From the NCBI RefSeq assembly GCF_028368995.1, contig NZ_JAQNDL010000004.1, positions 544,001 to 608,000 on the forward strand: a DNA stretch of 64,000 bases, given 5' to 3'. Position 1 is the stretch's first letter. Each line of letters opens with the position of its first letter. This document shows, piece after piece, positions 19,857 through 61,632 of this stretch. This DNA is from Nannocystis bainbridge. Its GTDB lineage: Bacteria; Myxococcota_A; Polyangia; Nannocystales; Nannocystaceae. The position numbers and the translations under genes were made by a program. The notes under the pieces are model-generated. The model did no database searches and was not told the DNA's origin. It saw nothing but the letters and a program-made list of their open reading frames with translations.

Positions 19857-21332
19857 TCAGGCGACGGCCTGGTAGTCGCGCAGGTCGAGCTGACGGGTGC
19901 GGAGCCAGTAGCTGACCGTAAAGCCAGGCCACAGCGCGGCGGCCCGACCATCGGCGGTCTGATACCAGCTCTTGCAGCCCGAAGACCACACCGTGCGGCC
20001 GAGCTGCTCGTAGAGCTCGCTGGCGAAGGCACTCTGGACCTCGGGGCGGACGTCGAGGGTCCGCAGGCCGCGGTCGCGGAGCGCCAGGATGCACTGCAGC
20101 GCGTAGCGGACCTGGGCCTCGATCATGAAGATCATCGAGTTGTGGCCGAGACCGGTGCCGGGGCCCATGAGCAGGTAGAGGTTGGGGAAGCCCGCGACGG
20201 TGATCCCGAGGTAGGTCTCGGGCTTGCCGCGCCAGTGGGCGTTGAGCTCGTGGCCGTCGGCGCCGACGATTGTGATGGCCGAGAGATAATCGGTGGCACG
20301 GAAGCCAGTGCCGAGGACGATGGCGTCGACCTCGCGCAGCACGCCGTCGCTGGTGCGCACGCCGGTCGGCTCGATGCGCTCGATCGCATCGGTCACCAGC
20401 TCGACGTTGGGCCGCGTCAGCGCCGGGTAGAAATCGTCGGAGATCAGGACGCGCTTGCAGCCCATGCGGTAGTCGGGCCGCAGGCGGGCGCGCAGGGCCG
20501 GATCGGCGATCTGGCGCGCGAGGTGCCGGCGCGCCAGCGGCTCGACCAGGCGCATGATCGCGGGCCGCATGAAGGCCAGCGCGCGCGCCTCGTGCTGCCA
20601 GTAGAGGCCGCTCCGCACCAGCCGCTGCAGGGCCGGCGCGCGGGCGTAGACGCGGCGCGCCAGCGGGCCGATCGGGTGGTCGGGCTTGGGCACGATCCAC
20701 GCGGGGGTGCGCTGGAACAGGTGCAGCCGCTGCACCTTCGGGGCGATCTGCGGCACGAACTGGATCGCGCTGGCGCCGGTGCCGATGACGGCGACTGTCT
20801 TTTGAGACATGTCGTAGCCGTGGTCCCAGCGGGCCGAGTGGAAGGTCTTGCCGGCGAAGCTGTCGAGCCCCGGCAGCTCGGGGTAAGCGGGCAGGTGGAG
20901 GGCTCCGTTGCCGAGCACGAGGGCGCGGGCGCTGTACTGCTCGCCTGCTTTGGTGCGCACGCGCCAGCGGCCGGCGGCGCGGTCGAACGCGGCGTGCTCG
21001 ACCTCGGCGCCGAAGCGGATGTGGCGGCGGACGTCGTACTTGTCGGCGCAGCGCTCGAGGTAGGCCTGGATCTCCGCCTGCAGCGGGAAGGCGCGGGTCC
21101 ACGCCGGGTTCTGCTCGAACGAGAACGAGTAGAGGTGCGAGGGGATGTCGCAGGCGGCCCCGGGATAGGTGTTGTCGCGCCAGGTGCCGCCGACGCTCGT
21201 GGCCTTCTCGAGCACGACGAAATCGGTGACGCCGACGCGGCGCAGCTGGATAGCCATGCACAGGCCGGAGAAGCCGGCGCCGACGATCACCACGTCGACG
21301 TCGCGGGAGGTGCTCGCAGCGAGTTCGGTCAT
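19857..21332 (-). CDS. Flavin-containing (Baeyer-Villiger-type) monooxygenase
   Basis: GAGFSG, GGTWRDNTYPGAACD, FHSARWD fingerprint, GTGASA. Confidence 0.93.
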   Translation of the reverse strand: MTELAASTSRDVDVVIVGAGFSGLCMAIQLRRVGVTDFVVLEKATSVGGTWRDNTYPGAACDIPSHLYSFSFEQNPAWTRAFPLQAEIQAYLERCADKYDVRRHIRFGAEVEHAAFDRAAGRWRVRTKAGEQYSARALVLGNGALHLPAYPELPGLDSFAGKTFHSARWDHGYDMSQKTVAVIGTGASAIQFVPQIAPKVQRLHLFQRTPAWIVPKPDHPIGPLARRVYARAPALQRLVRSGLYWQHEARALAFMRPAIMRLVEPLARRHLARQIADPALRARLRPDYRMGCKRVLISDDFYPALTRPNVELVTDAIERIEPTGVRTSDGVLREVDAIVLGTGFRATDYLSAITIVGADGHELNAHWRGKPETYLGITVAGFPNLYLLMGPGTGLGHNSMIFMIEAQVRYALQCILALRDRGLRTLDVRPEVQSAFASELYEQLGRTVWSSGCKSWYQTADGRAAALWPGFTVSYWLRTRQLDLRDYQAVA

Positions 21333-30548: not shown

Positions 30549-30604
30549 GGACGTAGCCAAACGCCTCCGTCGCGGAGATGGAGGCGTTTGGAGACACTGG
30601 CTGG

Positions 30605-36499: not shown

Positions 36500-38290
36500 A
36501 TGAGCGAGACCAAGACGAAACACCAAGAGCTGCAACGCTTTGTCGACGAGTGGGCGGCGCGGTGCAAGCCGGACCGCGTCGAGTGGTGCGACGGCTCGGA
36601 CGCCGAGTACGATCGGATGCTGGGGCTGCTGATCGAGAGCGGCGCCGCCATCCGCCTCAACCCCGAGAAGCGACCCAACAGCGTCCTGGTGCGCTCGGAC
36701 CCGCGCGACGTGGCGCGTGTCGAGAGCCGGACGTTCATCTGCAGCGCGTCGCGGGAGGGCGCGGGCCCGACCAATAATTGGGAAGACCCGCTGGTGATGC
36801 GCAAGAAGCTGAACGGGCTCTACGACGGCTGCATGCGCGGGCGCACCATGTACGTGGTGCCGTTCTGCATGGGCCCGCTGGGCTCGCCGATCGCCCAGAT
36901 CGGCGTGCAGCTGAGCGACTCGCCGTACGTGGTCGCCAACATGAAGATCATGACCCGCATGGGCAAGGCGGTGCTCGACGTGCTCGGCGAGGACGGCCGC
37001 TTCGTCAAGGCGGTCCACTCGGTCGGTCAGCCGCTCGAGCCCGGCGACGCCGGCCCCGCGTGGCCGTGCAACCCCGAGAACACGTACATCACGCACTTCC
37101 CCGAGAAGCGCACGATCCTGTCTTTCGGCAGCGGCTACGGCGGCAATGCGCTGCTCGGCAAGAAGTGCTTCGCGCTCCGCATCGCCTCGGCGATGGCCCG
37201 CGACGAGGGCTGGCTGGCCGAGCACATGCTCATCCTCGGCGTCGAGGGCCCCGACGGCAAGAAGACCTACGTGACCGCGGCGTTCCCCAGCGCGTGCGGC
37301 AAGACCAACTTCGCCATGCTCATCCCGCCCAAGGAGATGACCGGCTGGAAGGTCACCTGCGTAGGCGACGACATCGCCTGGCTCAAGCCGGACGCCGAGG
37401 GCAACCTGCGCGCGATCAACCCGGAGGCCGGGTTCTTCGGCGTGGCCCCGGGCACGTCGATGGAGACCAACCCCAACGCGATGATCTCGTGCGCGCGCGA
37501 CTCGATCTTCACCAACGTCGCGCTGACCGACGACGGCGACGTGTGGTGGGAGGGCATGACGAAGGAGACGCCGAAGCACCTGGTCGATTGGACAGGCAAG
37601 GACTGGACCCCGGACTGCGGCCGCAACGCGGCCCACCCGAACGCCCGCTTCACCGCGCCGGCCCGCAACTGCCCGGTCATCGACCCCGAGTGGGAGAACC
37701 CCGCCGGCGTGCCGATCCGCGCCATCATCTTCGGCGGCCGGCGCATGAACGACGTGCCGCTGGTCTACCAGGCGTTCAACTGGTCGCACGGCGTGTACAT
37801 CGGCGCGACCATGGGCTCGGAGCAGACGGCCGCGGCCGAGGGCCAGGTCGGGGCGCTGCGCCGCGATCCGATGGCGATGCTGCCGTTCTGCGGCTACAAC
37901 ATGGGCGACTACTTCCGCCACTGGCTGTCGATGGCCAAGCGCGTGAAGGAGCCGCCGCGGATCTTCCACGTCAACTGGTTCCGCAAGCAGGACGGCAAGT
38001 TCATGTGGCCGGGCTTCGGCCAGAACATGCGCGTGCTGCGGTGGGTGGTCGAGCGCTCGCGCGGCCAGGCCATCGGCGTCGAGTCGCCGCTCGGGTGGAT
38101 CCCGCACTACCACGACATCGACTGGCGCGGCCTCGACTTCTCCGAGAAGCAGTGGGACGAGCTGATGGGCTACGCCCGCGACCGCGTCAAGAAGCAGACG
38201 CTGTCGCACGAGGAGCTGTTCCTCGAGCTGTCCGAGGCGCTGCCGAAGACGATGATCTTCGAGCGCGAGCTGCTGATCAGCCGCCTGTGA
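36500..38290 (+). CDS. pckG: Phosphoenolpyruvate carboxykinase (GTP)
   Basis: [58 protein letters not shown]. Confidence 0.97.
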
Positions 38291-44717: not shown

Positions 44718-45172
44718 CGTAGCGGATCCAGCCGCGGGTGAGGAGGCCGCCGCGCGGGTCCGCCCGCGGGGTTCGCACAGGACGACCACATTCGCGCCGG
44801 GCGGGGCCTTCGGGCCACCACCGACCGGACGTTGCGTCCGGTCCCACGAGCAGGTGGTGAGGCATCGGGGAGGCGATGCGGCAGCGAGCTCGACGAGCGT
44901 CGAATGCCGCTTCGCAGCCTCCGGTGGCCCGGATCGTGGGGCGGCGGTTCGAGGCCGTGAATCAGGCCCCAGGCCGCGTCACGCGAGGAATTCACCTGGG
45001 GAGGCGAGCTACGGACCCGCGAGCGCCGGGCTGGACGGTGCGGTCCGGCCGGGTCAGCGCGGCCTGCGTCGTCGCCTGACGGAGCCGGTGCGGTGGCCGG
45101 GGAGTCGCTCGCGGCGGGCCGGATCGAGGGCTACTCGACAGCGGGGGCGCGATGTGGAATGTCCACGGCGCC

Positions 45173-46405
45173 ATGTCCGCTTCGTCTCCCGCCGCTCCGT
45201 TCGACGCGCAGGCGTTCGATGCTCACGTGATGTCGACGTACGCCCGCTACCCGATCGCGCTCGAGCGCGGCGAGGGGTGCAGGGTGTGGGACACGGAGGG
45301 GCGGGCTTACCTCGACTTCGCGGCCGGGATCGCGACCTGTACTTTGGGACATGCCCACAAGAACCTGGTCGAGGCGGTGACGCGGCAGATCGGCAAGCTG
45401 CACCACGTCTCGAACCTGTTCTACATCCCCGAGCAAGGCGCCCTGGCGGCGCTGCTGGCGGCGCTGGGGGCGGGGGAGCGGGCGTTCTTCTGCAACTCGG
45501 GGGCGGAGGCCAACGAGGCGGCGATCAAGCTGGCGCGCAAGTATGGGCGCACGCGCCTCGGCATCGAGAAGCCGGTGGTGATCGCGGCGCAGGCGAGCTT
45601 CCACGGGCGCACGCTGGCGACGCTGACGGCGACCGGGCAGGCCAAGTACCAGCAGAACTTCGACCCGCTGGTGCCGGGCTTCGTGCACGTGCCGTTCAAC
45701 GACGCCACCGCGCTCGGCGAGGCGATCGTCGAGCTCGACCGCGAGCGCAAGCAGGTGGCCGCGGTGCTGATGGAGCCGCTGCAGGGCGAGGGCGGGATCC
45801 GGCCCGGCGATCCGGCGGTGTTCCGCAAGATCCGCGAGCTGTGCGACGCCCGCGGGATCCTGCTCATGTTCGACGAGGTCCAGGTCGGCGTCGGCCGCAG
45901 CGGCAAGTGGTGGGGCCACCAGCACCTCGACGTCGAGCCCGACGTCATGACGCTGGCCAAGGGCCTGGCCGGCGGGGTGCCGATCGGCGCGATGCTCTGC
46001 AAATCGAGCTGCGACGTGTTCCAGCCCGGCGACCACGCGAGCACGTTCGGCGGCAACCCGCTGGCGTGCGCGGCGGCGCTGGCGGTGCTGATGACGATCG
46101 AGAAGGACCGGCTGGTCGACAACGCGCGGCAGCGCGGCGACCAGCTGCGCGCGGGGCTGCAGGCGCTGGCGAAGTCGTCGCCGGGCAAGATCGCCGAGGT
46201 GCGCGGCTGGGGCCTGCTGCTCGGCGCGGAGCTGGGTCCGTCCGAGACGCGCACGGCTCCCGAGATCGCCCGCGCGGCGCTCGACGCCGGGCTCCTGCTG
46301 GTCCCCGCGGGGCCGCGGGTGATCCGCTTCGTGCCGCCGCTGATCGTGTCGTCGGCCGAGATCGACGAGGCGCTGGCGGTGTTCGCCAGGGTGCTGGCGG
46401 GGTGA
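45173..46405 (+). CDS. argD: Acetylornithine aminotransferase
   Basis: FFCNSGAEANEAAIKLARK, SFHGRT, FDEVQVGVGRSG, TLAKGLAGG, HASTFGGNP. Confidence 0.94.
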   Translation: MSASSPAAPFDAQAFDAHVMSTYARYPIALERGEGCRVWDTEGRAYLDFAAGIATCTLGHAHKNLVEAVTRQIGKLHHVSNLFYIPEQGALAALLAALGAGERAFFCNSGAEANEAAIKLARKYGRTRLGIEKPVVIAAQASFHGRTLATLTATGQAKYQQNFDPLVPGFVHVPFNDATALGEAIVELDRERKQVAAVLMEPLQGEGGIRPGDPAVFRKIRELCDARGILLMFDEVQVGVGRSGKWWGHQHLDVEPDVMTLAKGLAGGVPIGAMLCKSSCDVFQPGDHASTFGGNPLACAAALAVLMTIEKDRLVDNARQRGDQLRAGLQALAKSSPGKIAEVRGWGLLLGAELGPSETRTAPEIARAALDAGLLLVPAGPRVIRFVPPLIVSSAEIDEALAVFARVLAG

Positions 46406-46515
46406 GCCTCGTTGACCTGTCTTTTCAGGCAGGTAGGATCTTCTCTCCCGCTGGCTGCGGTGCCGAAACCGCGCCGTGAGGCCGACGGGCGGCGTGCTAT
46501 CGTCGAGCTCGGCTC

Positions 46516-47841
46516 ATGACTGCGACCCTCGAATCGATCCGTGAACAGCTGGCTGCCGGCGACGCCTCCGGCGCGTGGCGGGCCCTCACGCAGGTGTTCG
46601 GTTACCCCGCGGGCGGGTCGCTCGACGAGGAGGGGTTCGCCGCGGCGCTGACGCTGACGGTCTCGATCACGCACGAGCTGGCCGGCGAGGAGGGCGTGGC
46701 CAAGATGGTGCCGGCGGCCCTCACCCCCGACGATCCGCGGGCGCTGTTTTTGGCCGGCTGGTGGCTGGCCGAGGAGCGGCAGTTTGCGATCGCGGCCAGC
46801 GTGCTCGAGCGGGCCAATCAGCTGGCGCCGGGGCAGGCCGAGATCGCCGGCGAGCTGGCCAACGCGCTCGAGCACTTGCTTCACTACGGGCCGGCGGCGC
46901 TGGTGCTCGAGGCGTCGGGGCGTGCCGACGACGATCCGCTGCTGGCGTACCTGTCGGGCTTTTACTGGCTGATGTGCGGCGACCTCGAGCGGCCGCGAGC
47001 GCGGCTGCAGCTGCTCGCCGACGTGACCGAGACCAACCTCGTGTTCATGCGCGAGGCGCTGGCAGGGATGCTGGCGCGGGCCGAAGCGCTGACGGCCGCG
47101 GGCGTGGGGCTGGAGGGCGACGCGCTGACGGCCTGGCACGCGGTGCTCAACGGTTCGCTGCTGCTCCACGAGTCGCCGCACGGCTACCCGGATCCGATGC
47201 ACGGGCGGTTCGCGTTCCTCAACGACTCGGCGACGCTGCAGCGGCTGGGGCTCGCCCGGCTGGAGCGGCTGCTGGACGCGGTCGGGCAGCGGCCGGAGCG
47301 GATCCTCGCCGCCCCCGATCGCGCCAGCCAGATCCTCGCGCACGCGGCCGCGCTGGTGCTGGAGCGGCCGCTCGAGCCGTGGACGGCCGACGCCGGGCGC
47401 CCGGGGCTGGTGGTCGCGTGGAGCCTCGATCATGTCGGCGACGTCGCGTTCCTCCGCGGCATGCGGGACCACGCGCCGGGGCGGCCGCTGTTCGTGCACG
47501 TCACCGACTGGATCGAGCCGTTCGCCTACGCGCCCGACGTGGCGACGCTGCTGGCGCAGACGGTGTTGCATCCGTTCACCGGCGGCGCGCTGACGTACGA
47601 CGCGGCGACGCAGCAGCCCGGCAGGGCCGAGCCGGACCCGCGCGAGGACGCCGAGCTGGGCGCGCTGGTGGCGGCGACGCCGGTCGCCGACGACAGCGCG
47701 GCGCCGCTCGAGCGCGTGATCGAGATCGACCGCGCGCTGGCGGGGCTGGCCGCCGATCGGCGGCCGGGGCTGCACCGCGCGGGCGGTCCGCGGCTGATCC
47801 ACCGGGCCGGCAGCCCGGTGCCGAGCAACTTCTTCCGGTGA
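46516..47841 (+). CDS. Hypothetical protein (TPR-like N-terminal half)
   Basis: Long GC3-biased ORF; LERANQLAPGQAEIAGELA helix pattern. Confidence 0.75.
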   Translation: MTATLESIREQLAAGDASGAWRALTQVFGYPAGGSLDEEGFAAALTLTVSITHELAGEEGVAKMVPAALTPDDPRALFLAGWWLAEERQFAIAASVLERANQLAPGQAEIAGELANALEHLLHYGPAALVLEASGRADDDPLLAYLSGFYWLMCGDLERPRARLQLLADVTETNLVFMREALAGMLARAEALTAAGVGLEGDALTAWHAVLNGSLLLHESPHGYPDPMHGRFAFLNDSATLQRLGLARLERLLDAVGQRPERILAAPDRASQILAHAAALVLERPLEPWTADAGRPGLVVAWSLDHVGDVAFLRGMRDHAPGRPLFVHVTDWIEPFAYAPDVATLLAQTVLHPFTGGALTYDAATQQPGRAEPDPREDAELGALVAATPVADDSAAPLERVIEIDRALAGLAADRRPGLHRAGGPRLIHRAGSPVPSNFFR

Positions 47842-47843
47842 GG

Positions 47844-47927
47844 TTGTCTTTCGGACATGTCCATCGGGGCATGTCTGAAAGAGCCTGAACGTTCGGGCAT
47901 GTGAAAGAGGACATGTCCGAACGGGCA
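47844..47927. repeat. Six 14-bp units between convergent genes
   Basis: Units at 47844, 47858, 47872, 47886, 47900 and 47914. Confidence 0.9.
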
Positions 47928-48089
47928 TGTGATGCGCGCACGCGCACGCGCGGGCGCTTGCGGGAGGCCGGGCTCAGCGGAGCGCGGCGGGCGTGGCAGC
48001 GCCGGCGGTCGCCGGTGTGTGCAATGGGCGGGCTCCGTGGGGCGGTTCGCGGCGAGCGGGGCAGCGCTGGCGGTTGCGGGCGGCCGGGC

Positions 48090-49385
48090 TCAGCGGAGCG
48101 CGGCGAGGCGGGCTTGCAGGCGGTCGAGGCCGAGGTTGCCGGGGCCGCCGAGGCTGACGCGGGCCTGCAGGCTGGCCTCGGGCGACCTGTCCTTCAGGTC
48201 ATGCATCTCGGCCGCGGCCTGGCGGTAGGCGTCGCGAAACGGCACGCCGGCGCGGGCCAGCTCGACGGCGCGGTCGGTGGCGTGCAGCTCGCCGTCGATG
48301 GCGGCGCGCATGCGGGCGCGGTCGAGCTCGAGCGTACCCACGAGCGCGGGCACGAGGGCGAGGCCGGCGAGGCCGCGGGTGAACGCGCGCAGGGTCGGGG
48401 CCTTGGTGGCCTGGAGGTCGCGGTGGTAGCCGCTCGGCAGCGACAGCAGCGACGACAGCTCGGACATCGCGCCCTCGGTGACGGAGGGCACGGCGCGCAG
48501 CAGCTCGACGACGTCCGGGTTGCGCTTGTTGGGCATGATCGACGAGCCGGTGGTGTAGGCGTCGGGCAGGCGCACGAACGCGAACTCGGCGGTCGAGAAC
48601 AGCGACAGGTCCCAGGCCAGGCGGCGGACGTCGAGCAGCGCCTGGTGCAGCGCCTGCACCGCCAGCAGCTCGAGCTTGCCGCGGCTGTTCTGGGCGTAGA
48701 TCGGCGAGACCTGCACGCGCGAGAAGCCGAGCTCGTGGGCGACGCCGTCGCGGTCGAGCGGGAGGTTGACGCCGTAGCCGGCGGCGGTGCCGAGCGGGCT
48801 CGAGTCGAGGGTGTGGGCGGTGGCGCGCGCGGTCTCGGCGTCGTCGAGGAAGGCCTCGGCGTGGCCGGCGAGCAGGGCGGCGAGCGACGACGGCACGGCC
48901 CGCTGCAAGTGGGTGTAGCCGGGCAGGGCGACGTCCTGGGTGGCCTCGGCGCGCTGCAGGCAGGCGTCGGCGCAGTCGAGGCAGCGCGCGCGCAGGGCCC
49001 CGAGGGCGTCCTTGAGCCACAGGCGCATGGCGACGAGGATCTGGTCGTTGCGGCTGCGGCCGGTGTGGACCTTGCGGCCGACGTCGCCGAGGCGCTCGCC
49101 GAGGTACCACTCGATGGCGGAGTGGCCGTCCTCGAAGCGGTCGTCGAGCACGAACTCGCCGCTGCGCACGGCCTCGGCGAACGCTTCGAGGCCCGCCACG
49201 AGGGCCTCGGCCTCGCTCGTGGCGAGCACGGCGATGCGCTGCAGGCCGTGGACGTGGGCGATCGAGGCGCGGACGTCGTGGAGGATCAGCTGGCGATCGA
49301 GGACGACGTCATCGCCGGCGCAGAACGCCTGGGCGGCGGCGTCGAGGGCGGCCTGGCCCTTGTCCCATAGCGGTCGGGTGCTCAT
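48090..49385 (-). CDS. argH: Argininosuccinate lyase
   Basis: HTGRSRNDQ, PGYTHLQRA, GSSIMPNKRNPD. Confidence 0.96.
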   Translation of the reverse strand: MSTRPLWDKGQAALDAAAQAFCAGDDVVLDRQLILHDVRASIAHVHGLQRIAVLATSEAEALVAGLEAFAEAVRSGEFVLDDRFEDGHSAIEWYLGERLGDVGRKVHTGRSRNDQILVAMRLWLKDALGALRARCLDCADACLQRAEATQDVALPGYTHLQRAVPSSLAALLAGHAEAFLDDAETARATAHTLDSSPLGTAAGYGVNLPLDRDGVAHELGFSRVQVSPIYAQNSRGKLELLAVQALHQALLDVRRLAWDLSLFSTAEFAFVRLPDAYTTGSSIMPNKRNPDVVELLRAVPSVTEGAMSELSSLLSLPSGYHRDLQATKAPTLRAFTRGLAGLALVPALVGTLELDRARMRAAIDGELHATDRAVELARAGVPFRDAYRQAAAEMHDLKDRSPEASLQARVSLGGPGNLGLDRLQARLAALR

Positions 49386-49442
49386 GCGGTGCTCCTGGCG
49401 GCGAGGCGGTGGTCTGGTCTTCGGGACAGGTGCGGCGCGCGC

Positions 49443-50396
49443 TCACGGGCCGGCGGGCTCGGGGTCGCGCGGCACCCCCTGGCGCTCGGGCAGGCCGAGG
49501 GCGAGGTTCAGGTTCTGCAGGGCCTGCGAGGCGGCGCCCTTGAGCAGGTTGTCGAGGGTGACGACGACGACGGCGTGGCGGTCGTCGACGTGGAGGCCGC
49601 CGATGGTGACGTCGTGGCGGCCGGCGACGTCGCGGACCTCGGGGATGTCGCTCGTGACGCGCACGAGCGGCTCGTCGGCGTAGACGCTGCGGTAGCGCTC
49701 GAGCAGCTCGGCGCGCTCGAGCGAACGCGCGAGCGGGAGGGTGATCGTCAGGGTGATGCCGCGGAAGAACGGGGCGACGTGAGGGACGAAGCGGACCGCG
49801 TGGCCGAGGTGATGGCTGGCCTCGCGCTCGTGCAGGTGGCCGGTGAGGGCGTAGGGCATGAGGTTGTCGCGCAGGCGCTCGGGGTCGTTGCGCGGCGAGG
49901 GGGTGGTGCCGGCGCCGCTGTAGCCGGACACGCCGAAGGCCTGCGGCGGGCCGGCGAGCAGCTCCAGCAGCGGAGCGACGCCGAGCTGGATGCCGGTGGC
50001 GTAGCAGCCGGGGTTGGCGATCCGGCGGGCGCCGCGGATCTGGGCCCGGTGGCGCTCGGGCAGGCCGTAGGCCCAGGCGGGGTCGAAGCGGTAGTCGGCC
50101 GAGAGGTCGACGAGCACGGGGCCGCGCGCGTCCAGGGCGTCGGCGTAGGCGGCGGCGAGGCCGTTCGGCAGGGCGAGCACGACGGCGTCGACGGGCCAGG
50201 AGGCGACTGTCTCGGGGGACATGTCCTCGAGGACAATGTCGGCGGGGGCGTCGGTGAGGTGGGCCCGCAGCGGGTCGCCGACGCCCTGGCGCGAGGCGGC
50301 GCGGGTCAGGCGGAGGTCGTCGTGGCCGGCGAGCAGGCGCGCGAGCTCGCCGCCGACGTGGCCGCGCGCGCCGACGAGGCCGAGGGTGAAGCTCAT
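49443..50396 (-). CDS. argC: N-acetyl-gamma-glutamyl-phosphate reductase
   Basis: GARGHVG, DLSADYR, IANPGCYAT, DNLLKGAA. Confidence 0.95.
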   Translation of the reverse strand: MSFTLGLVGARGHVGGELARLLAGHDDLRLTRAASRQGVGDPLRAHLTDAPADIVLEDMSPETVASWPVDAVVLALPNGLAAAYADALDARGPVLVDLSADYRFDPAWAYGLPERHRAQIRGARRIANPGCYATGIQLGVAPLLELLAGPPQAFGVSGYSGAGTTPSPRNDPERLRDNLMPYALTGHLHEREASHHLGHAVRFVPHVAPFFRGITLTITLPLARSLERAELLERYRSVYADEPLVRVTSDIPEVRDVAGRHDVTIGGLHVDDRHAVVVVTLDNLLKGAASQALQNLNLALGLPERQGVPRDPEPAGP

Positions 50397-50503
50397 GGCC
50401 GGCCTCCGTGAACAGGGTCGAAAGGACATGTCCACAGGAGCATGTCGTCATGGACATGCCCGCTGGGGCATGTCTGAAGGGGCATGGCGACGGGCGGGGT
50501 CAC
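50393..50503 (-). CDS. Putative 36-aa bridging ORF between argB and argC, largely made of five 14-bp units (50415-50484)
   Basis: GTG overlaps the argB stop and its TGA overlaps the argC ATG. Confidence 0.35.
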   Translation of the reverse strand: MTPPVAMPLQTCPSGHVHDDMLLWTCPFDPVHGGRP

Positions 50504-51828
50504 GCGGCGCCTCCGATGGTGTGCGCGGCCTCCAGGGTCGGCGGGGCGGCGAGGGCCCGCTCGACGCACTCCTGGATGGTCGGGAAGTCGGTGACGCCGG
50601 TCCAGAACACGGTCCAGGTGCCGCCGCTGTAGCTGCCGTCGGCGCGCTGGAAGTACCAGGGGTTGATCGGGTTGTCGACGCGGGCGCGCCAGAACAGCTG
50701 CGGGGTGTCCCGGGTCATGCGCTGCCACAAGGAGCCGCCGATGCCCTCGCCCTGGGCCTCGCCGGTGACGGCGAACTTGTCGAGGTAGGGGATCGGGCCC
50801 TCGTCGGTGAGGATGGCGGCGGCGCGGTAGCTGTCGGCCAGGTAGATCCGGCGGAACGGCTTGCGGGTGAAGTAGTCGGCGACCGGGGGCCGGCCGAAGG
50901 CGGCGGCGAGCAGGTCGGCGAGGCGCGGCAGGTCGACGCTGGCGAGCGACGGGTGGAGGATGATGCGCTCGCCGCGGCGGACCAGGGTGCCCGAGCCCTT
51001 GTGGGTGAAGAGCTCCATGGCCAAAAGGTCAGGTGAGGTGATCGAGACCGAGGAGGCGCGCGGGAGCCTGCCGAGGAGGTCGTGGATCAGCGCGAGCTTG
51101 TGGCGGGTGCTGTCGGTCAGCCACGGCTCGGCGAGCAGCGGCTCGTAGTCTTCGGCGAGGTTGACGGCCGAGATGAGGTCGCCGTACTCGTCGCGCAGGC
51201 CGCCCCGGGCCCGCAAGAAGATGATCTTGTAGGGCTGCAGGCGGACCGCGAGGGCGTGCGCGGCGAGGTCGGGGCCGAGGTCGAGGATCTGGCCGCCGGC
51301 GGTCTCGCCGATGCTGGCGAGCACGGGCATCGAGCCGGCCTTGAGGCTCGACTCGATGGCGTCGGTGTCGACGCGCACGATCCGCGCCCGCTGCTCGGCG
51401 TCGCGGTCGGCGTCGTCGAGCTCGGCCGCGAACACGCCGCCGACGACGGGCCGGCCGCGCGCGCCCATCTCCTCGAGCATGTCGACGAGCCGCAGGTTCT
51501 CGGCGCGGAACACCCGGCGCACCTGCTCGAGCGCGCGCGGCGAGGTGCGCTGGGACCAGTCGGTCGGGTCGATGCCGGCGGCGGTGAAGGCGGCCTGCAG
51601 CTGCGGCCCGACGCCGTGCACGACGACCGGGTGGAGGCCGACCTGGTGGAGGAAGTTGAGCGAGGAGGCGAGGCTCTCGAGGTCGTCGGCGAGCAGGCCG
51701 CCGCCGACCTTGATGACGGCGAAGCGCTTGTGCTCGACGCTCGAGAATTGCTTGAGGTACTGCTCGACCTCTTTGCGGCCGCCGAGGTTGCGCAGCAGCT
51801 TGACGATCAGCTCGCGGGGGTTGGGCAT
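50500..51828 (-). CDS. argB: Acetylglutamate kinase with C-terminal NAT (DUF619) domain; bifunctional NAGS/K type
   Basis: FAVIKVGG, VVVHGVGPQ, ELFTHKGSGTLVRRG, YLDKFAV...QGEGIG...LFWRAR. Confidence 0.92.
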   Translation of the reverse strand: MPNPRELIVKLLRNLGGRKEVEQYLKQFSSVEHKRFAVIKVGGGLLADDLESLASSLNFLHQVGLHPVVVHGVGPQLQAAFTAAGIDPTDWSQRTSPRALEQVRRVFRAENLRLVDMLEEMGARGRPVVGGVFAAELDDADRDAEQRARIVRVDTDAIESSLKAGSMPVLASIGETAGGQILDLGPDLAAHALAVRLQPYKIIFLRARGGLRDEYGDLISAVNLAEDYEPLLAEPWLTDSTRHKLALIHDLLGRLPRASSVSITSPDLLAMELFTHKGSGTLVRRGERIILHPSLASVDLPRLADLLAAAFGRPPVADYFTRKPFRRIYLADSYRAAAILTDEGPIPYLDKFAVTGEAQGEGIGGSLWQRMTRDTPQLFWRARVDNPINPWYFQRADGSYSGGTWTVFWTGVTDFPTIQECVERALAAPPTLEAAHTIGGAA

Positions 51829-51841
51829 GGTCGTGAGAACT

Positions 51842-52996
51842 TCAGGACAGGATCGCGCGGTAGCGGGTGGCCGCCTCGACGAGGTCGGCCAGGGGGACGT
51901 ACTCGCCCGCGGTGTGGGCCTGCTCGATCGAACCTGGCCCATAGACCAGGACGTCGCAGCCGGCGGCCGAGAACAGGGCGGCCTCGGTCCAGAAATCGAC
52001 GGGGTCGCCGGGCGGGAGGCCGAGGCGGGCGGCCAGGGCGGACGCGGCCTGGCGGGCCGCCGTCAAGCGCGCGGGGCCGCCGGCGGGCAGCGGCGGGGCG
52101 AGGAAGCCGGGCGTGAAGCGGACGCGCGCGGGGTCGGGCGCGAGCGCGAACAGCTCGGCGAGGGCGAGCTCGGGCGGGAGCTCGGGCGGCGGCCGCACGC
52201 CGAAGCGCACGGTGGCGGCGCTGGCGATCATGTTGGCCTTGAGGCCGCCCTCGACGGCGCCGAGGTTGAGCCGCAGACCCCGGAGCGAGCCGGCCGCGCC
52301 GGCGGTCTCGCTGGCGCCCGCGCGGGCGAGGGCGAGGCTGGCCCAACGGACGGCCTCGTGGACGGCGCTGTCGCGCAGGGCCCGGGCGGCGGAGGCGTGG
52401 CCGCCGATGCCGGAGAACACGGCGGTGGCGGTGCCGATCCCGCGGTGCTCGAGCACCGCGCGGCAACGGGTGGGCTCGGCGACGACGACGCTGCGGAAGG
52501 TCGGGTGCGAAGCTGTCCCGGAGGACATGTCGGATGTCCGCGGGGACAGGTCGGAGCGGGTCAGGAATTCGCGGATGCAGCGGCTGCTGCCGGCCTCCTC
52601 GTCGGACGAGAACAGCACGGCGGCGGGGCCGGTGGTGGCCTCGAGCACGCTCAGGAGGCAGGCAGCGGCGCCCTTGATGTCGCAGGCGCCGAGGCCGACG
52701 GCGAGGTCGCCCTCGATGCGCAGGCGGTGGGGGTCGGCGGTCCAGCCGGGGTCGGCGGGCACGGTGTCGACGTGGACGTTGAACAGCACCTGCGGGGCGC
52801 CGCGCACGGCCAGCAGGTAGACGCAGCCGTCGCCGAGGTCGACGGTGTCGCAGGTGAGACCTGACCCCTGGAGCATGTCCCGCAGGTACGCGAACAGCCC
52901 GGCGTCGCCGGCGATCGCCCGCGGCGGGTTGCGGGTGTCGAAGGCGACCAGGCGCGTCAGGTGTTCGAGGGTGCGCCGGAGCGTGGCTTCGGTCAT
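51842..52996 (-). CDS. argE: Acetylornithine/acetylcitrulline deacetylase (M20)
   Basis: FDTRNPPR, NVHVDTVP, GACDIKG, DEEAG, AEPT, FWTEA, QAHTAGE; ATGA overlap with argG. Confidence 0.93.
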   Translation of the reverse strand: MTEATLRRTLEHLTRLVAFDTRNPPRAIAGDAGLFAYLRDMLQGSGLTCDTVDLGDGCVYLLAVRGAPQVLFNVHVDTVPADPGWTADPHRLRIEGDLAVGLGACDIKGAAACLLSVLEATTGPAAVLFSSDEEAGSSRCIREFLTRSDLSPRTSDMSSGTASHPTFRSVVVAEPTRCRAVLEHRGIGTATAVFSGIGGHASAARALRDSAVHEAVRWASLALARAGASETAGAAGSLRGLRLNLGAVEGGLKANMIASAATVRFGVRPPPELPPELALAELFALAPDPARVRFTPGFLAPPLPAGGPARLTAARQAASALAARLGLPPGDPVDFWTEAALFSAAGCDVLVYGPGSIEQAHTAGEYVPLADLVEAATRYRAILS

Positions 52997-54222
52997 CGCT
53001 GCCCGGGGCGCCGGCGCGGGTTGACGCGCGCGGACAGGGTCGAGCTCATGCCGAGCAGCTTGATGAAGCCCTCGGCCTCGCGGGCGTCCCAGTCGGCCGA
53101 CTGAGCGTAGACGGCGCCCTTGTTGCGCAGGATGTGCTCGGAGCGCACGGCGATCGGGGTGACGACGCCGCCGGCGGTCTCGAGGGTGACGGTGCCGTTG
53201 ACGACGGCCTGCGACGAGCGCAGGAACGCCTCGAGGTCGTCCTTGAGCGGCTCGAAGAAGAAGCCGCGGTAGACCAGCTCGACCCACTTCTTGGCGACCA
53301 GCGGCTTGAAGCTGTTCTGGTTGGCGGTGAGGATGGCCTCCTCGAGCGCGCGGTGGGCCGTCATCAGGCCGGCGATGCCGGGGCACTCGAACACGATCCG
53401 GCCCTTGAGGCCGATGGTGGTGTCGCCGGTGTAGATGTTGCGGCCGACGCCGTAGGCGCCGAGGCGCTCGTTGAGGCGGCGCAGGATGTCGGGGCCGGCC
53501 ATCGCCTCGCCGTCGAGCTTGACGGCGACGCCGCGCTCGAAGGTGATGTCGAAGCGCGCGGGCTGCCGCGGCCAGTCCTCGGGGCGCGCGCACATCTGCC
53601 AGGTCTCGGGCCCGGGGGTCTGAAACTCGTCGATCTCCGAGCCCGAGGCGGTGACGCCGAGCAGGTTGACGTTGATGCTGTACTTGGCGGTCTTGGGCCG
53701 CACGTGGTGGCCGAGCTTCTGCAGGTACTCGGCCTCGTAGGCGCGCACGGCGTGGTGCTCGTGCTGGATGTCGCGGATCGGCGCGACGATGTCGTAGTCG
53801 CCGAGCGAGCGCACGGTCTGGTCGAAGCGGACCTGATCGTTGCCCATGCCGGTGCAGCCGTGGGCGAACACGCGGGTGCCGCGAGCGTCGCACAGGGCCA
53901 GCGCGCGCTCGACGATGATGTAACGATCGCTGACGAGCAGCGGGTAGACGTCCTGGTAGAGCTGGCCGCCGATGACGAGGGGGACGACGACGTCGTCCCA
54001 GATCGGCTGGGCGCCGCTCTCGGTCACGTGCTCGACGGCCCCGAGGTCGCGCGCGCGCTGCTCGATGTAGGCCCGCTCGGCGTCGTCGACGCCGCCGGTG
54101 TCGACGAACAGGGTGACGACTTCGTAGCCGCGCTCGCGCAGGTAAGGCACGCAGAAGCTGGTGTCGAGGCCGCCGGAGAAGGCGAGCACGACCTTCTTGT
54201 TCGAAGCTGTACTTTGGGACAT
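52993..54222 (-). CDS. argG: Argininosuccinate synthase
   Basis: LAFSGGLDTS, HGCTGMGNDQVRF, GLKGRIVFE. Confidence 0.96.
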   Translation of the reverse strand: MSQSTASNKKVVLAFSGGLDTSFCVPYLRERGYEVVTLFVDTGGVDDAERAYIEQRARDLGAVEHVTESGAQPIWDDVVVPLVIGGQLYQDVYPLLVSDRYIIVERALALCDARGTRVFAHGCTGMGNDQVRFDQTVRSLGDYDIVAPIRDIQHEHHAVRAYEAEYLQKLGHHVRPKTAKYSINVNLLGVTASGSEIDEFQTPGPETWQMCARPEDWPRQPARFDITFERGVAVKLDGEAMAGPDILRRLNERLGAYGVGRNIYTGDTTIGLKGRIVFECPGIAGLMTAHRALEEAILTANQNSFKPLVAKKWVELVYRGFFFEPLKDDLEAFLRSSQAVVNGTVTLETAGGVVTPIAVRSEHILRNKGAVYAQSADWDAREAEGFIKLLGMSSTLSARVNPRRRPGQR

Positions 54223-54270
54223 GTGGGGGATCCTGGGAGCGAGGCGAGCGGGGGCGAAGCGAGGGCGAGG

Positions 54271-55275
54271 TCAGAGGGCGCCGCGCAGGAGGGCGTCCAT
54301 CAGGGCCTTCTGGACGTGGAGGCGGTTCTCGGCCTCGTCGATGTGGATCGCGCGCGGCGAGTCGAGGACCTCGTCGGTGACCTTGACGTTGCGGCGGACC
54401 GGGAGGCAGTGGCTGAACAGGGCGTTCGGGGTCATCGCCATCTTGGCGGCGTCGACCATGAAGCGCTTGCTGGCCTCGCGGATCGGCTTCTCCTCGTCCC
54501 AGCGGCCGAAGTACGGCAGGGCGCCCCAGCTCTTGGCGTAGACGATGTCGGCGCCGCGGTAGCCCTGCTCGATGTCGTGGGTGACGGTGAGGCTGCGCCC
54601 GGCGGCCCGGGTGTACTCGGCGGCGGCGCTCATGTAGCGCTCGTCGAGCACGTACTCGGGGCTGGGGCACAGGAGGGTGACGTCCATGCCGAGCTTGGCG
54701 GCGATGATCAGCGCCGAGTTGGCGACCGCGGTGTTGAGCGGCTTGGGGTGGTACGTCCAGGTCAGGCACATCTTCTTGCCGGCGAGGTCGCCGAGCTTCT
54801 CCTGCAGGGTCAGCGCGAGCGCCAGCTCCTGGCAGGGGTGCGTGATCGTCTCCATGTTGATCACGGGCACGGTGGCGTGGCGCGCGAACGACTGGATGAC
54901 GCGGTCCTCGCGGTCGACGTCCCAGCGCTGAAACTTGGGGAAGGCGCGCACGGCGATGGCGTCGACGTAGCGCGAGAGGACCCGCGCGACCTCGCGGACG
55001 TGCTCCTCGGGCTCGCCGTCCATGATGACGCCGTCGTCGAACTCGATCGGCCAGGCGCCCTTGCCAGGCTCGAGCACGATGGCCTTGCCGCCGAGCTGGT
55101 GCATGCCGAGCTCGAAGCTGGTGCGAGTGCGCAGCGAGGGGTTGAAGAAGACCAGGGCGATCGACTTGCCAGCCAAGGTCTGCGCGTGCGGCCCGGCCTT
55201 GATGGCGCGCGCGGCGGCGAGCAAGGCTTCGATCTCGGCGCGGCTGTAGTCGAGGGTCGAGAGGAAGTGGCGCAC
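54271..55275 (-). CDS. argF: N-acetylornithine carbamoyltransferase (ArgF')
   Basis: SLRTRTSF, EEHVREVARVL, HPCQEL, TYHPKPLNTAVANS, HCLPVRRNVK (Xanthomonas-type AOTCase signatures). Confidence 0.92.
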   Translation of the reverse strand: MRHFLSTLDYSRAEIEALLAAARAIKAGPHAQTLAGKSIALVFFNPSLRTRTSFELGMHQLGGKAIVLEPGKGAWPIEFDDGVIMDGEPEEHVREVARVLSRYVDAIAVRAFPKFQRWDVDREDRVIQSFARHATVPVINMETITHPCQELALALTLQEKLGDLAGKKMCLTWTYHPKPLNTAVANSALIIAAKLGMDVTLLCPSPEYVLDERYMSAAAEYTRAAGRSLTVTHDIEQGYRGADIVYAKSWGALPYFGRWDEEKPIREASKRFMVDAAKMAMTPNALFSHCLPVRRNVKVTDEVLDSPRAIHIDEAENRLHVQKALMDALLRGAL

Positions 55276-55509
55276 GCGCGCTCCTCTAGCACAGGGGGGC
55301 GGTGCGCCAAATAGGCGCGGGGGCCGTCGCGCAGCGCAGGCCGGCGTGCGATTGTGAACTTCCTCTCGCGTTCGCGGCGAGGGGATGGCGTCGCGCTCGC
55401 CGGGCCGGGGCGCCGGGGCGGACGCCGGTGGTGGTTCGGGAAAGGCGCCCCGCCGCTCGGGGGGATCCGTCGACTCTTGCGGTGTTGGTTTGAGGCGGTC
55501 GCCCGCGAT

Positions 55510-56667
55510 TCAGCGGCGGTCCTTGGCCATGGCCTTGAGGTTGGCGCGCCGCGCCTCGTGGGCGCAATCGGGGCACCAGGTGTGTTGATAGCGGATCGCG
55601 CTCGGGCGGGCCCACCAGCGGTGGCCCTTGTCGCACTCCCATTGCAGGTGGGTGTTGCGGTCGACGTATTTTTTCGAGATGCACTTGCCGCCGTTGCTGG
55701 CGGCCATGCGCTGCATCTCGGGGATGCCGAGGCGGGTGTCGGCGCATTGCGGGCACCAGCGCTCGTTGAGGATGTTGCCGCTGGTGCTGAGCCACTCGTG
55801 GCCGCTGGCGCAGCGCCAGCGCAGCTTGCGGCCCGAATGGAGGTTGTGCTCGGTGAGGAGGGCGCCGCCGCGGCGAGCGGCGATCCGGCGAACCTCGGCG
55901 ATCCAGCCGTCCTCGCGGCGACACTGCTGGCACCAATGGCCGAGGCGAATGTTGCGAGCCCGCGAGGTGAAGCGGTGGCCGCGGGCGCACTCCCAGCGCA
56001 AGGGGCCGGCGATATCGACGGTTTTGGCGGAGACGCAGCGGCCGCCCCACCGGGCGACGAGGTCGTCCATGTCGGCGAGGCTGCGGCGGCAGCGACCGCA
56101 CCAGTTGCCCTCGCGGATCTTGCGAGCCTCGGCGTCCCATTCGTGGCCGCGTTCGCAGCGGAACCGCAGCTTGTGGCCGAGCGGCGGGTATTCGCGGGAG
56201 AGGCAGCGGCCGCCCCGTTCGCGGGCGATGGCCTTGATCTTGTCGAGTTTGTCGGGGGTGCGATAGCGGCAGGTGGGGCACCAGGAGCCGCCGAGGATGA
56301 TGGCGCTGGTGGTGGACCAGCGATGGCCGCGCTTGCATTGGTAGTCAGCGCGGCCCTGGTAGCCAGGATAGGCGTCGGCGAGGCACTTGCCGCCGTGCTG
56401 GCGGGCGATGGCGCGGAGGGCGGCGAGGCGCGCGGCGGGATCGTTGCGAGGCGGGCGCGGCACGGCAGGTGCGGGCGAGGTCGGCGGGGCTGCGGCGGGG
56501 GCCGGCGAGGTCGGCGGGGCGGCGGGCTTGCGGGCGCTCGGCTCGAGCTTTGGCTTGGGGATCGGAGCGTCGGCGGGCGATTTGCGGGCGGCGGGCCTGG
56601 GCTTCGGGGCGTCGGCGCCTTGGACCGGTGTGTGCGAGCGCGGAGGCTTGGACCGGTTCGCGGGCAC
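55510..56667 (-). CDS. Protein with five tandem zinc-ribbon repeats
   Basis: Five copies of GGxC/L...CxxGHxW/F...I...WCxxC after a Pro/Ala/Lys-rich N-terminus. Confidence 0.85.
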   Translation of the reverse strand: MPANRSKPPRSHTPVQGADAPKPRPAARKSPADAPIPKPKLEPSARKPAAPPTSPAPAAAPPTSPAPAVPRPPRNDPAARLAALRAIARQHGGKCLADAYPGYQGRADYQCKRGHRWSTTSAIILGGSWCPTCRYRTPDKLDKIKAIARERGGRCLSREYPPLGHKLRFRCERGHEWDAEARKIREGNWCGRCRRSLADMDDLVARWGGRCVSAKTVDIAGPLRWECARGHRFTSRARNIRLGHWCQQCRREDGWIAEVRRIAARRGGALLTEHNLHSGRKLRWRCASGHEWLSTSGNILNERWCPQCADTRLGIPEMQRMAASNGGKCISKKYVDRNTHLQWECDKGHRWWARPSAIRYQHTWCPDCAHEARRANLKAMAKDRR

Positions 56668-56742
56668 GATGGCGGACGCTACCTCCGCTCAGGAATGCGC
56701 GCAAGCGCGCGCGCCGGCGAGCAGGTGCACGGGCGTGAGCGA

Positions 56743-56806
56743 GACGGCGACTCGGGCGTGAGCGGGGGCGCGGGCGGGAGCGTGACGGCGACTCGGGCGT
56801 GAGCGG
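56743..56806. repeat. 23-bp direct repeat, two copies, in the divergent intergenic region
   Basis: GACGGCGACTCGGGCGTGAGCGG at 56743 and 56784. Confidence 0.8.
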
Positions 56807-57062
56807 AGTCTGGCGCGGGTCCGGGCGGCGGTGGTTCTCCCGCGTGCCCGAGGAGGCGTCGCCTGGGGTCGACGCGCGGCAGGTCGAGCGGGCCGGGCGG
56901 TGGGTGACCTGCTGGCGGCGGCGCGACCCTGGGGGCGCGAGGCGGTAGCTGTCTCTTGGGCCAGGTCGGCGGAGCGGCCGCCTCGGCGAGTCGTCGGCGC
57001 GGGGTTCGCGGGCGCTTCCCCTCCGGGCGGGAACGCGCTAGGGAGCGTGCCCGCGGAGGCCC

Positions 57063-58289
57063 ATGGCAGCAGCTTTGTCGAGGATCGACCCACCGAGCAC
57101 GCCGGGCCTGTTGGCGCTGGCCGACGGGACCCTGTTTCGCGGCCGCGCGCTCGGAGCCCACGGGCGCACGTGCGGCGAAGTCGTGTTCAACACGGCGATG
57201 ACCGGATACCAGGAGGTCGTCTCCGACCCGAGCTATCACCAGCAGATCGTGACGCTGACGGCGGCGCACGTCGGGGTGGTCGGGGTCAACGCGGACGACG
57301 AGGAAGGCCGCGGGCCGCAGGTCGCCGGGCTGGTGGTCCGCGACGCGCCGCGCATGTTCGCGTCGTGGCGCGGGCGCGAGAGCCTGGGGGCGTATCTGCA
57401 GCGCGCGGGGGTGGTGGCGGTGGCGGACATCGACACGCGCCGGCTGACGCACCTGCTGCGCGAGCGCGGGGCGATGGCGGGCTGCGTGGCGGCCGGCGAG
57501 GCGGCCCGCGACGAGGCGGGCTGCGTGGCGGCGGCGCGGGCGTTCCCGGGGCTGCAAGGCGCGGCGCTGGCGGAGGCGGTCAGCGTGCCGGAGCCGGCCG
57601 GGTGGACGGCGGGCTCGGTCCGCTGGCTCGAAGGACATGTTCGTGAGGGCATGTCCGATGCGGCAGGTCCGGAGGGGCATGTTCGTGAGGGCATGTCCCC
57701 GGGGGCAGCCGGGCACGTGGTGGCGTTCGACTTCGGGATCAAGCGCAACATCCTGCGGCTGCTGGTCGACCGCGGGCTGCGGGTGACGGTGGTGCCGGCG
57801 GCGACGACGGCGAGCCAGGCGCTGGCGCTGCGGCCGGACGGGATCTTCCTGTCGAACGGGCCGGGCGATCCGGAGCCGCTGCAGGCCCAGCAGGCGGCGA
57901 TCCGCGAGCTGGTGGCGGCGGGGCTGCCGGTGTTCGGGATCTGCCTCGGGCACCAGCTGCTGTGCCTGGCGCTGGGGGCCCGCACGTTCAAGATGAAGTT
58001 CGGCCACCACGGGGCCAACCACCCGGTGCGCGAGCTGGCGAGCGGGCGGGTGCTGATCACGAGCCAGAACCACGGGTTCGCGGCCGACCCGGCGACGCTG
58101 CCGGCGGCGCTGCGGGCGACGCATGTGTCGCTGTTCGACGGGTCGCTGCAAGGGGTGGAGCTGGCGGATCGGCCAGTGTTCTCGTTCCAGGGCCACCCGG
58201 AGGCGTCGCCGGGGCCGCGCGAGCTGGCGGGGCTGTTCGACAGGTTCGCCCGCGAGGTGAGCGCGGGCCGGACCACGAAGGGGGTGTGA
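57063..58289 (+). CDS. carA: Carbamoyl-phosphate synthase small subunit
   Basis: [40 protein letters not shown]. Confidence 0.96.
57624..57707. repeat. Six 14-bp units (84 bp, 28 codons) inside carA
   Basis: Units at 57624, 57638, 57652, 57666, 57680 and 57694; peptide EGHVREGMS repeated at a 42-bp period. Confidence 0.92.
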
Positions 58290-58290
58290 C

Positions 58291-61440
<3,150 letters not shown>

Positions 61441-61480
61441 GCCCGGCGCGCCGCGGTCGTCAGGCCGCGGCGCGAAGGGC

Positions 61481-61632
61481 TGGTCGAGCGGGCAGGTGAC
61501 TGACCGATCGGGCAGGTTCGGCTGTCCGAAGGGGCAGGTGATCCCGCTGGCCGAGCGGGCAGGTGATGCTGGCCGATCGGGCGGGTGAATCGGTGTCCGG
61601 CGTGACGGGTTGTGAGGCTGTCCGAATGGACA
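61481..61632. repeat. Seven spaced 14-bp units (20-25 bp apart) downstream of carB
   Basis: Units at 61481, 61501, 61523, 61548, 61570, 61594 and 61619; six are followed by GGT. Confidence 0.85.

Follow-up and report, generated by a model that had tools for sequence, protein, structure and literature searches.

A 14-nt palindrome of Nannocystis conserved at the nucleotide level within and between genes

In a 64,000-nt stretch of the genome of the soil myxobacterium Nannocystis bainbridge (assembly GCF_028368995.1, contig NZ_JAQNDL010000004.1, positions 544,001 to 608,000, forward strand; hereafter the window, with coordinates counted from its first letter), a 14-nt palindrome, TGTCC-N4-GGACA (hereafter the unit), recurs between genes and inside conserved genes such as argD, carA and carB. 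We show that its copies are held by a force acting on the nucleotides of the two arms, not by the encoded peptide and not by chance. The original prediction for this DNA, made from the letters alone, had pointed to a motif written into coding sequence through rare synonymous codons but gave no consensus; this palindrome is the motif behind its sites. The genome comprises 11.05 Mb in five contigs with 71–72% G+C, and the third codon positions of long open reading frames (ORFs) are G or C in 94.4% of cases.

Exact units number 1987 genome-wide, against 3 for the pattern read backwards, which served as a reversed control. Allowing up to one mismatch, the window contains 59 units, compared with 1.57 ± 1.2 in 100 dinucleotide shuffles. 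The excess extends into coding sequence, where ORF interiors hold 705 exact units and 29 control palindromes with permuted arms have a median of 5 and at most 33. Split by reading frame, exact units number 72, 217 and 416, versus 1.5, 1.3 and 20 in 30 within-gene synonymous shuffles that leave every protein sequence unchanged, a 20–170-fold over-representation in coding frames. With an improved gene set, 737 exact units fall in gene interiors (~23 expected by synonymous shuffling), 1160 between genes and 90 at gene edges. Genes hold about 37% of the exact units, at a density of 87 per Mb, compared with 708 per Mb between genes (8 times higher).

Within the unit, positions 0/13 and 1/12 are nearly invariant and positions 2/11 and 4/9 are tolerant; the outer TG/CA and the inner G/C are the most constrained. 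The N4 centre is nearly free, the only avoided bases being A in the first position and T in the fourth, and loop preferences are alike in coding and noncoding units. In the spacers between genes, units stand singly or in head-to-tail arrays of period 14 that reach up to 7 units, with neighbours sharing GGACATGTCC. Coding units spell recurrent peptides, among them LSPGT, PVPEDS and CPEGQ.

The choice of codon at the unit does not follow ordinary codon usage. At coding sites where the other nine of the ten defined bases already match, we compared the choice of the tenth base with the background frequency of the codon that supplies it. ACA completed the unit in 242 of 261 cases (background 2.2%), TGT in 64 of 69 (9.5%), GGA in 64 of 98 (2.5%), TCC in 242 of 283 (13.4%), and a T-ending preceding codon in 427 of 493 (5.7%). 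Overall, the completing rare base was chosen at 65–93% of sites versus a 2–13% background, and because this excess occurs in all three frames, the peptide cannot be the target. The comparison of codon usage that the original prediction had proposed thus gives frequencies at motif-compatible sites that are not equal to the background. The prediction overstated the converse, that runs of rare codons appear exactly where the motif is spelled: units account for 3710 of the 152956 A/T-ending codons (2.4%), and 8–29% of runs of 3 to 6 or more rare codons overlap a unit, so that most do not.

Conservation among relatives gives the same picture. The window was compared with the syntenic region of five same-genus genomes (about 87–89% nucleotide identity in aligned blocks), and a wider comparison used about 480 kb each from three of those five, with 412 kb scored. 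In the 412 kb, A/T third positions were identical at a fraction of 0.862 inside units (n = 99) versus 0.398 outside (n = 3315); in the window, with five relatives, the values were 0.867 (n = 24) and 0.426 (n = 575). G/C third positions were identical at 0.919 inside units and 0.876 outside. The synonymous-site conservation that the prediction had named as a check is therefore present, at ~86% identity in units versus ~40% elsewhere. When 89 coding units were followed in the three relatives, 187 of 231 gap-free comparisons kept the unit with at most one mismatch, 2 comparisons had an indel and 34 were unaligned; the unretained fraction matches the ~18% share of chance sites among matches with up to one mismatch. 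In aligned noncoding units, arm positions were 0.74–0.99 identical and loop positions 0.55–0.67. Some units reach further: two are found in another genus, spelled with identical codons, and a genus member whose proteins are about 75% identical still has those of argD and argC.

The separation of arms from loops is also visible within genes. An array of six units lies in frame in the interdomain linker of carA (57624..57707; 84 nt, 28 codons), with register and length equal in 6 species. Across these species its arms are 0.836 identical and its loops 0.517, compared with 0.935 for the rest of the gene, and since the arms exceed the loops at constant register, the constraint falls on the arm nucleotides, not on the peptide. 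A three-unit array between the helicase lobes of RecQ (3881..3922), at which the NCBIfam RecQ match splits, likewise has an arm identity of 0.913 and a loop identity of 0.617.

Chance, combined with ordinary clusters of rare codons, such as those of an N-terminal ramp or left over from a foreign donor, is a reading to which we attach negligible probability, even though some sites lend themselves to it. A/T-ending codons make up 18–20% of codons 2–6 in 2137 genes with concordant ATG starts, compared with 5.5% in gene interiors, and this ramp touches the unit-bearing starts of carB and argG; the nearest kin of argD outside the genus are cyanobacterial; and two sites that the original prediction had cited, in PEPCK (phosphoenolpyruvate carboxykinase, GTP) and argB, are weak. 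As a general account, however, chance is ruled out by the permuted arms (705 units against a median of 5), the synonymous shuffles, the completing-codon test and the window shuffles (59 against 1.57), and the conservation figures also stand against it. Among the sites, the N-terminal ramp concerns only the starts of carB and argG, where it explains neither the spelling of the unit nor its identity in 5 of 5 close relatives. Units are often placed on start codons, the ATG then being supplied by the CATG junction (window examples at 58291, 54222, 33900 and 24827). Unit-bearing starts occur in 12 of the 2137 concordant-ATG genes, and about 127 ATG-anchored units look start-like.

argD carries a single unit with one mismatch, TGTACTTTGGGACA, at 45338..45351 over the conserved peptide TCTLGH, written ACC TGT ACT TTG GGA CAT; the within-amino-acid frequencies of its five consecutive rare codons are 0.095, 0.019, 0.041, 0.025 and 0.098. 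The codons ACT TTG GGA CAT are intact in five of six unit-bearing same-genus orthologues, and the sixth has ACG for ACT. These carriers are four of the five close relatives with the unit intact, the fifth with ACG, and the member whose protein is about 75% identical. Another genus member, about 71% identical, spells TCTLGH as TGC ACC CTC GGC CAC, with no indel. Elsewhere argD fits host codon usage throughout (score 217.7 over 417 codons), which argues against a foreign remnant.

The argD gene (45152-46405) has its closest named records in Nannocystis species (91–94% identity). Its best matches outside the genus are cyanobacterial, at 61–66% identity, while members of its own class reach 36–51%, an affinity that suggests an old transfer between cyanobacteria and the Nannocystis lineage. 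TCTLGH is encoded by 69 of 75 cyanobacterial argD homologues in mixed codons, many of them A/T-ending. We rejected the argD codons as a relic of a cyanobacterial donor, as this fails to explain why only the unit codons stayed A/T-ending, and fails to explain carB.

Coding copies mostly originated in place, and arrays grew in linkers that tolerate them. Where a single unit could be compared with an orthologue lacking it, seven of nine showed no change in length: the one in argD, four in carB, one in a carbamoyltransferase and one in a mevalonate-diphosphate decarboxylase. This sample is small and partly hand-picked, as it includes three of nine randomly drawn exact single units, chosen for lying in recognisable single-copy enzymes. 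At the carB start, the unit (58292..58305, one mismatch) is written ATG CCC AAA AGG ACA GAT and is identical in 5/5 close relatives, and CarB meets its NCBIfam profile from residue 1. Two outgroups have CGG CGT GAC GAC (MPRRDD) and CGC CGC ACC GAC (MPRRTD) at this point, with no indel, and because both use Arg codons, the writing of the unit included a change from R to K. In the carbamoyltransferase, QVLEEA became AVLEDI, and in the mevalonate-diphosphate decarboxylase PALGAV became PVLGDI (GCC CTC GGC GCC GTG to GTC CTC GGG GAC ATC). The original prediction had described the sites as synonymous point changes rather than insertions. Rare synonymous codons are indeed used, but amino acids change too (MPRRTD to MPKRTD in carB, ALGAV to VLGDI in the decarboxylase), and the claim of point changes holds for the seven single units and not for the units at indels in an HflX-like GTPase and in argH, nor for the in-frame additions that form the carA and RecQ arrays.

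These exceptions are what an insertion-only account would build on, in which every coding copy is an in-frame insert of a tiny mobile or slippage-prone element. The carA array region is 15–18 residues longer than in two outgroups; the RecQ arrays occupy linkers and differ in length between species; the HflX-like unit sits in an 8-codon segment absent from two genus members; and coding and noncoding units share their loop preferences. For most single units this account is already contradicted, because their length is unchanged within conserved peptides (TCTLGH, MP[KR]RTD) and a 14-nt insert would shift the frame. Nor did a search of the genome (completeness 90.5%) find any match to the Y1 (RAYT, REP-associated tyrosine transposase) family PF01797, while 6 of 14 reference genomes used as a control were matched. 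We regard insertion as the sole origin of coding copies as very improbable.

As to the nature of the force, we tentatively favour purifying selection for sequence-specific DNA recognition of the arms by a putative factor, at a probability somewhat short of even. The reader would most simply be a dimeric DNA-binding protein, and single coding copies would act as DNA sites and not as RNA hairpins. Within genes, the unit arises where it stands, through clustered substitutions that are synonymous if the peptide permits and conservative amino-acid changes if not; in tolerant linkers it also expands in frame. The original prediction had proposed a directional force towards the motif, through positive selection or biased conversion. 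The completing codons, the retention of units and the third-position identity all bear out such a force, and they do not separate selection from conversion.

Several points weigh against selection for recognition. The factor that would read the unit is hypothetical, and a drive by conversion or repair would equally give conservation and an excess of rare codons. The relatives are kin, so the conservation figures describe one clade and not independent samples, and many units are unshared at greater divergence: in a distant genus member (G009), 2 of 8 arg-cluster sites are shared. The genome-wide counts use our own gene calls, based on ORFs and a codon log-odds score, a crude annotation that affects absolute numbers. 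Gap statistics and nearest-neighbour distances revealed no regular spacing (coefficient of variation of gaps 1.21); the distance from a coding unit to its nearest other unit was 1271 nt, compared with 1205 nt under a local null; and unit density in genes was independent of units in the flanking spacers. Finally, the enrichment of units downstream of genes points to an RNA 3'-end or terminator-like role of the intergenic copies, and an intergenic array at 47858..47927 folds at −45.4 kcal/mol (z = −8.0).

On the three spacing results, we dropped a short-range spacing function as unsupported. The spacing tests do not explain a trend with gene length, in which in-gene unit density rises from 0.087 per kb in genes under 600 nt to 0.463 per kb in those of 3.6–6 kb; in genes over 6 kb it falls to 0.153 per kb. 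Gaps between units reach up to 44 kb.

Biased conversion or a repair drive, whether linked to repair, methylation or template switching, would make and restore units with no need of a benefit to the cell. The missing spacing signal fits such a drive, as do the clustered multi-base changes without indels (CGC CGC ACC GAC to AAA AGG ACA GAT in carB, and the change in the decarboxylase), the alteration of amino acids even in housekeeping enzymes, and the retention of arms in otherwise unconstrained linkers. Against it, one-mismatch variants persist at free synonymous positions, as at position 2 of the argD unit, which is T in 3 and C in 4 of 7 unit-carrying genus members, and no clear recent multi-base gain was seen when the 89 coding units were compared with the three close relatives. 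A depletion of partial cores would have fitted a drive as well: GTCC-N4-GGAC lacking the outer T and A occurs 344 times against 822 expected. We discarded this avoidance as an artefact of a general codon-context bias, under which the half-sites stand at 0.66 and 0.49 of expectation and an unrelated palindrome at 0.15. The bias itself is a property of coding sequence, where GTC followed by C and G followed by GAC occur at 0.66 and 0.49, respectively, of the synonymous-shuffle expectation. For HIP1, a short, highly iterated cyanobacterial palindrome (GCGATCGC), PMC5861425 argues from like conservation for selection and against biased repair, an argument that does not strictly rule out a drive. 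On balance, we consider such a drive rather unlikely.

The second alternative is an RNA-level element, in which units form hairpins for 3'-end protection, termination or processing and coding copies are internal RNA signals. The placement of units after genes speaks for it: a unit is present in 55% of convergent, 25% of tandem and 15% of divergent spacers, with 5.15, 1.9 and 0.65 units per kb, respectively, and the median distance of intergenic units is 69 nt to the preceding stop codon and 190 nt to the following start. In addition to the array at 47858..47927, a second array folds better than its shuffles (z = −3.6); wobble-compatible variants at positions 11 and 2 show a slight excess on the sense strand in tandem spacers (110 vs 66); and base-pair covariation in arrays is a modest 1.3–2.6 times expectation. 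In single units we found no specific covariation; a pooled 2–4-fold excess of compensated doubles, at first sight hairpin covariation, was a mixing artefact, as the split into single and arrayed units showed. Other observations run counter to RNA: the single coding units of argD and carB fold no better than shuffles (z = −0.13 and +0.15), the loops lack strand asymmetry (TTCG 84, CGAA 82), the wobble excess is reversed in coding units (73 vs 102), the arm sequence itself is conserved beyond pairing, and no Rfam family matched the window at its gathering score. Sequencing runs yielded soil or wetland metagenome contigs with small shares and no isolate RNA. We judge an RNA-level role of the unit distinctly unlikely.

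The repeat is lineage-specific. A pattern consisting of the unit plus the array junction was found in 10/10 same-genus genomes, with 1–222 matches on both strands, and 311 times in the window genome, while 20 other relatives and 300 further genomes of the phylum had at most one match each; tandem arrays are confined to the genus (330 other genomes searched). Same-genus genomes contain 114–2090 unit copies versus 1–6 of the reversed control, and most other genera have at most 7. In two sister genera, single units are moderately enriched (161 and 87 copies; controls 1 and 10). As these genera have single units and only the genus has arrays, the unit seems older than the arrays. In the literature on Nannocystis palindromes or intergenic repeats and on myxobacterial repetitive extragenic palindromic (REP) sequences, judged by titles and abstracts, we found no description of the repeat.

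DNA uptake sequences of Neisseria (DUS) and uptake signal sequences of Pasteurellaceae (USS) are oriented, non-palindromic words of about 9–12 bases. The Nannocystis unit resembles them in being lineage-specific, in its hundreds to thousands of copies with a large genic share, and in shaping peptides (LSPGT, PVPEDS, CPEGQ). It differs in being a 5+4+5 palindrome and not an oriented word, in forming tandem arrays, in taking rare codons (ACA 2.2%, GGA 2.5%, TGT 9.5%) and in sitting also on conserved residues. According to PMC2817400, uptake sequences have many coding copies, shape the encoded peptides and are tied to preferred codons and poorly conserved residues. Under a strict uptake reading, competent cells would prefer unit-bearing DNA and recombination would spread the unit. 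Its distribution would suit this, with thousands of copies, about 37% of them in genes and many downstream of genes, common to the genus and thinner in the two sister genera, and sparse in very long genes and in gaps of up to 44 kb. The free centre of the palindrome within tandem arrays and the use of rare codons, in contrast to the preferred ones of PMC2817400, make such a reading highly unlikely. The likening to uptake sequences in the original prediction therefore stands as an analogy, limited by the palindrome, its free centre, the arrays, the greater density between genes and the rare codons.

REP and bacterial interspersed mosaic elements (BIME) of enterobacteria and pseudomonads are extragenic palindromic units downstream of genes, lineage-specific and of high copy number, that come with RAYT. 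Nannocystis units are likewise palindromic and clustered in spacers at gene 3' ends. However, the unit is far smaller, coding sequence holds hundreds of conserved copies that were made by substitution, and a RAYT/REP system was rejected as the genome has no PF01797 match. Rickettsia palindromic elements are 100–150 bp insertions in frame inside genes. The carA and RecQ arrays resemble these and other inserts of the miniature inverted-repeat transposable element (MITE) kind as repeat DNA in frame within functional genes, but most Nannocystis coding copies are single 14-nt units with no change in length.

HIP1, according to PMC5861425, shows 15–300-fold over-representation and conservation both inside and between ORFs, while its function is unknown. 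The Nannocystis unit is similarly over-represented beyond codon usage in coding and noncoding sequence, with conservation at orthologous sites. The two differ in sequence and phylum, and the Nannocystis unit has 14 nt with a free 4-nt centre, forms period-14 arrays and is 8 times denser between genes. HIP1 overlaps known methyltransferase sites, whereas the Nannocystis sequence is different; a periodicity of 10–90 kb has been reported for HIP1, and our null result covers short-range spacing only. The Nannocystis repeat belongs to none of these systems, as it lacks in each case the defining sequence, orientation, codon preference or transposase. Its nearest analogues are HIP1 and the DNA uptake sequences.

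A broader possibility, which we hold as doubtful but worth stating, is that the palindrome is imposed chromosome-wide by a hitherto undescribed system with sequence specificity, which could be a binding factor or a conversion machinery, and that the coding copies are required sites. Such a system would override a 94% G/C bias at third positions, replace amino acids in CarB, ArgD, ArgC and mevalonate-diphosphate decarboxylase, and grow in-frame arrays inside CarA and RecQ. The sites would then serve the chromosome as a whole, for instance in self-marking, in nucleoid organisation or in the control of recombination, and nothing comparable is known from the Myxococcota. Over-represented motifs that reach into coding sequence are rare, and whether selection or mutational drive maintains them has long been debated. 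Nannocystis offers a clean signal for this question, since its extreme codon bias (about 94% G or C at third positions) makes the cost of every A/T-ending codon in a unit visible, and the free 4-nt centre provides an internal neutral control, arms against loops, even within genes. Several culturable, sequenced Nannocystis species have orthologous sites, which makes recoding and binding experiments feasible. Annotators of Nannocystis genes should note that the repeat shapes their start codons, linkers and certain conserved motifs.

Gene names of the window loci come from NCBIfam profiles, which confirmed those given in the original prediction (argD, argB, carB, PEPCK and a flavin monooxygenase); the sequences it quoted were also confirmed. 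Not all of its examples proved equal. argD and the carB start hold, as does a unit-like site with two mismatches in the flavin monooxygenase (20796..20809, peptide MSQKT). Here ATG TCT CAA AAG ACA encodes an internal Met before the second GxGxxA motif and not a start, and CAA AAG ACA is kept in four of five close relatives, the fifth having CGA. By contrast, the PEPCK site (37581..37594, two mismatches) recurs in 1/5 close relatives and is likely a chance or very young site, and the argB site (51018..51031, two mismatches), kept in 2/5, is probably not a real unit.

In the arg cluster, an ORF of 441 residues between argD and argH (46516-47841) has a good coding score and no NCBIfam match at 1e-10. 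The array at 47858..47927 lies downstream of both this ORF and argH. Near its 3' end, argH carries a single unit with one mismatch (48188..48201), found with up to one mismatch in 2/5 close relatives, and the region has a 1-codon indel in a distant genus member. argC contains two adjacent units (50208..50235) that encode IVLEDMSPETV, with arm positions identical in 99 of 100 comparisons across five relatives; the same codons, including the rare ATT and ACA, occur in G009. A further array lies between argC and argB (50429..50484), and two exact units lie upstream of the argG region (52514..52548). At the argG start, on the minus strand, the unit at 54208..54221 is written ATG TCC CAA AGT ACA; it is identical in 5/5 close relatives, and the distant member differs in its N-terminus. 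A 16-mer, TGTACTTTGGGACATG, is common to argD (45338-45353) and the argG start (54208-54223) and has 4 copies in the genome. We dropped an ArgR-type operator, which the clustering of sites in arg genes had raised, because the unit occurs thousands of times genome-wide.

carB has three units besides that at its start. The first (59617..59630, one mismatch, peptide WPKGQ) is present in 5/5 close relatives, and the outgroups have other residues at equal length. The second is exact (60575..60588, peptide LSDGT), with identical codons in a different genus (G013), and is absent from G009 with no indel. The third (61280..61293, one mismatch) is kept in 4/4 aligned close relatives, with no indel relative to the outgroups. 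Genus members also possess another carB-like gene, about 59% identical to the window carB (58291-61440). Downstream of carB, unit-bearing repeats at 61501..61632 include a variant array of period 22; this tandem repeat spans 61479-61588 in 5 copies of the consensus GCTGGCCGAGCGGGCAGGTGAT, each a degenerate unit plus an 8-nt spacer. Upstream of carA, a 41-nt tandem repeat at 56719-56819 (2.1 copies, 84–89% matches) is unrelated to the unit. In RecQ, a second array lies in the linker before the C-terminal region (2947..3002); across 6 species its length ranges between 86 and 95 nt. Elsewhere in the window, ORFs contain stretches rich in triplets of the GAC/GGT/ACG type (28900-31000, 33370-33530, 35030-35150 and 39950-40100), which encode low-complexity segments rich in Asp, Thr and Gly and match one another as direct and inverted repeats.

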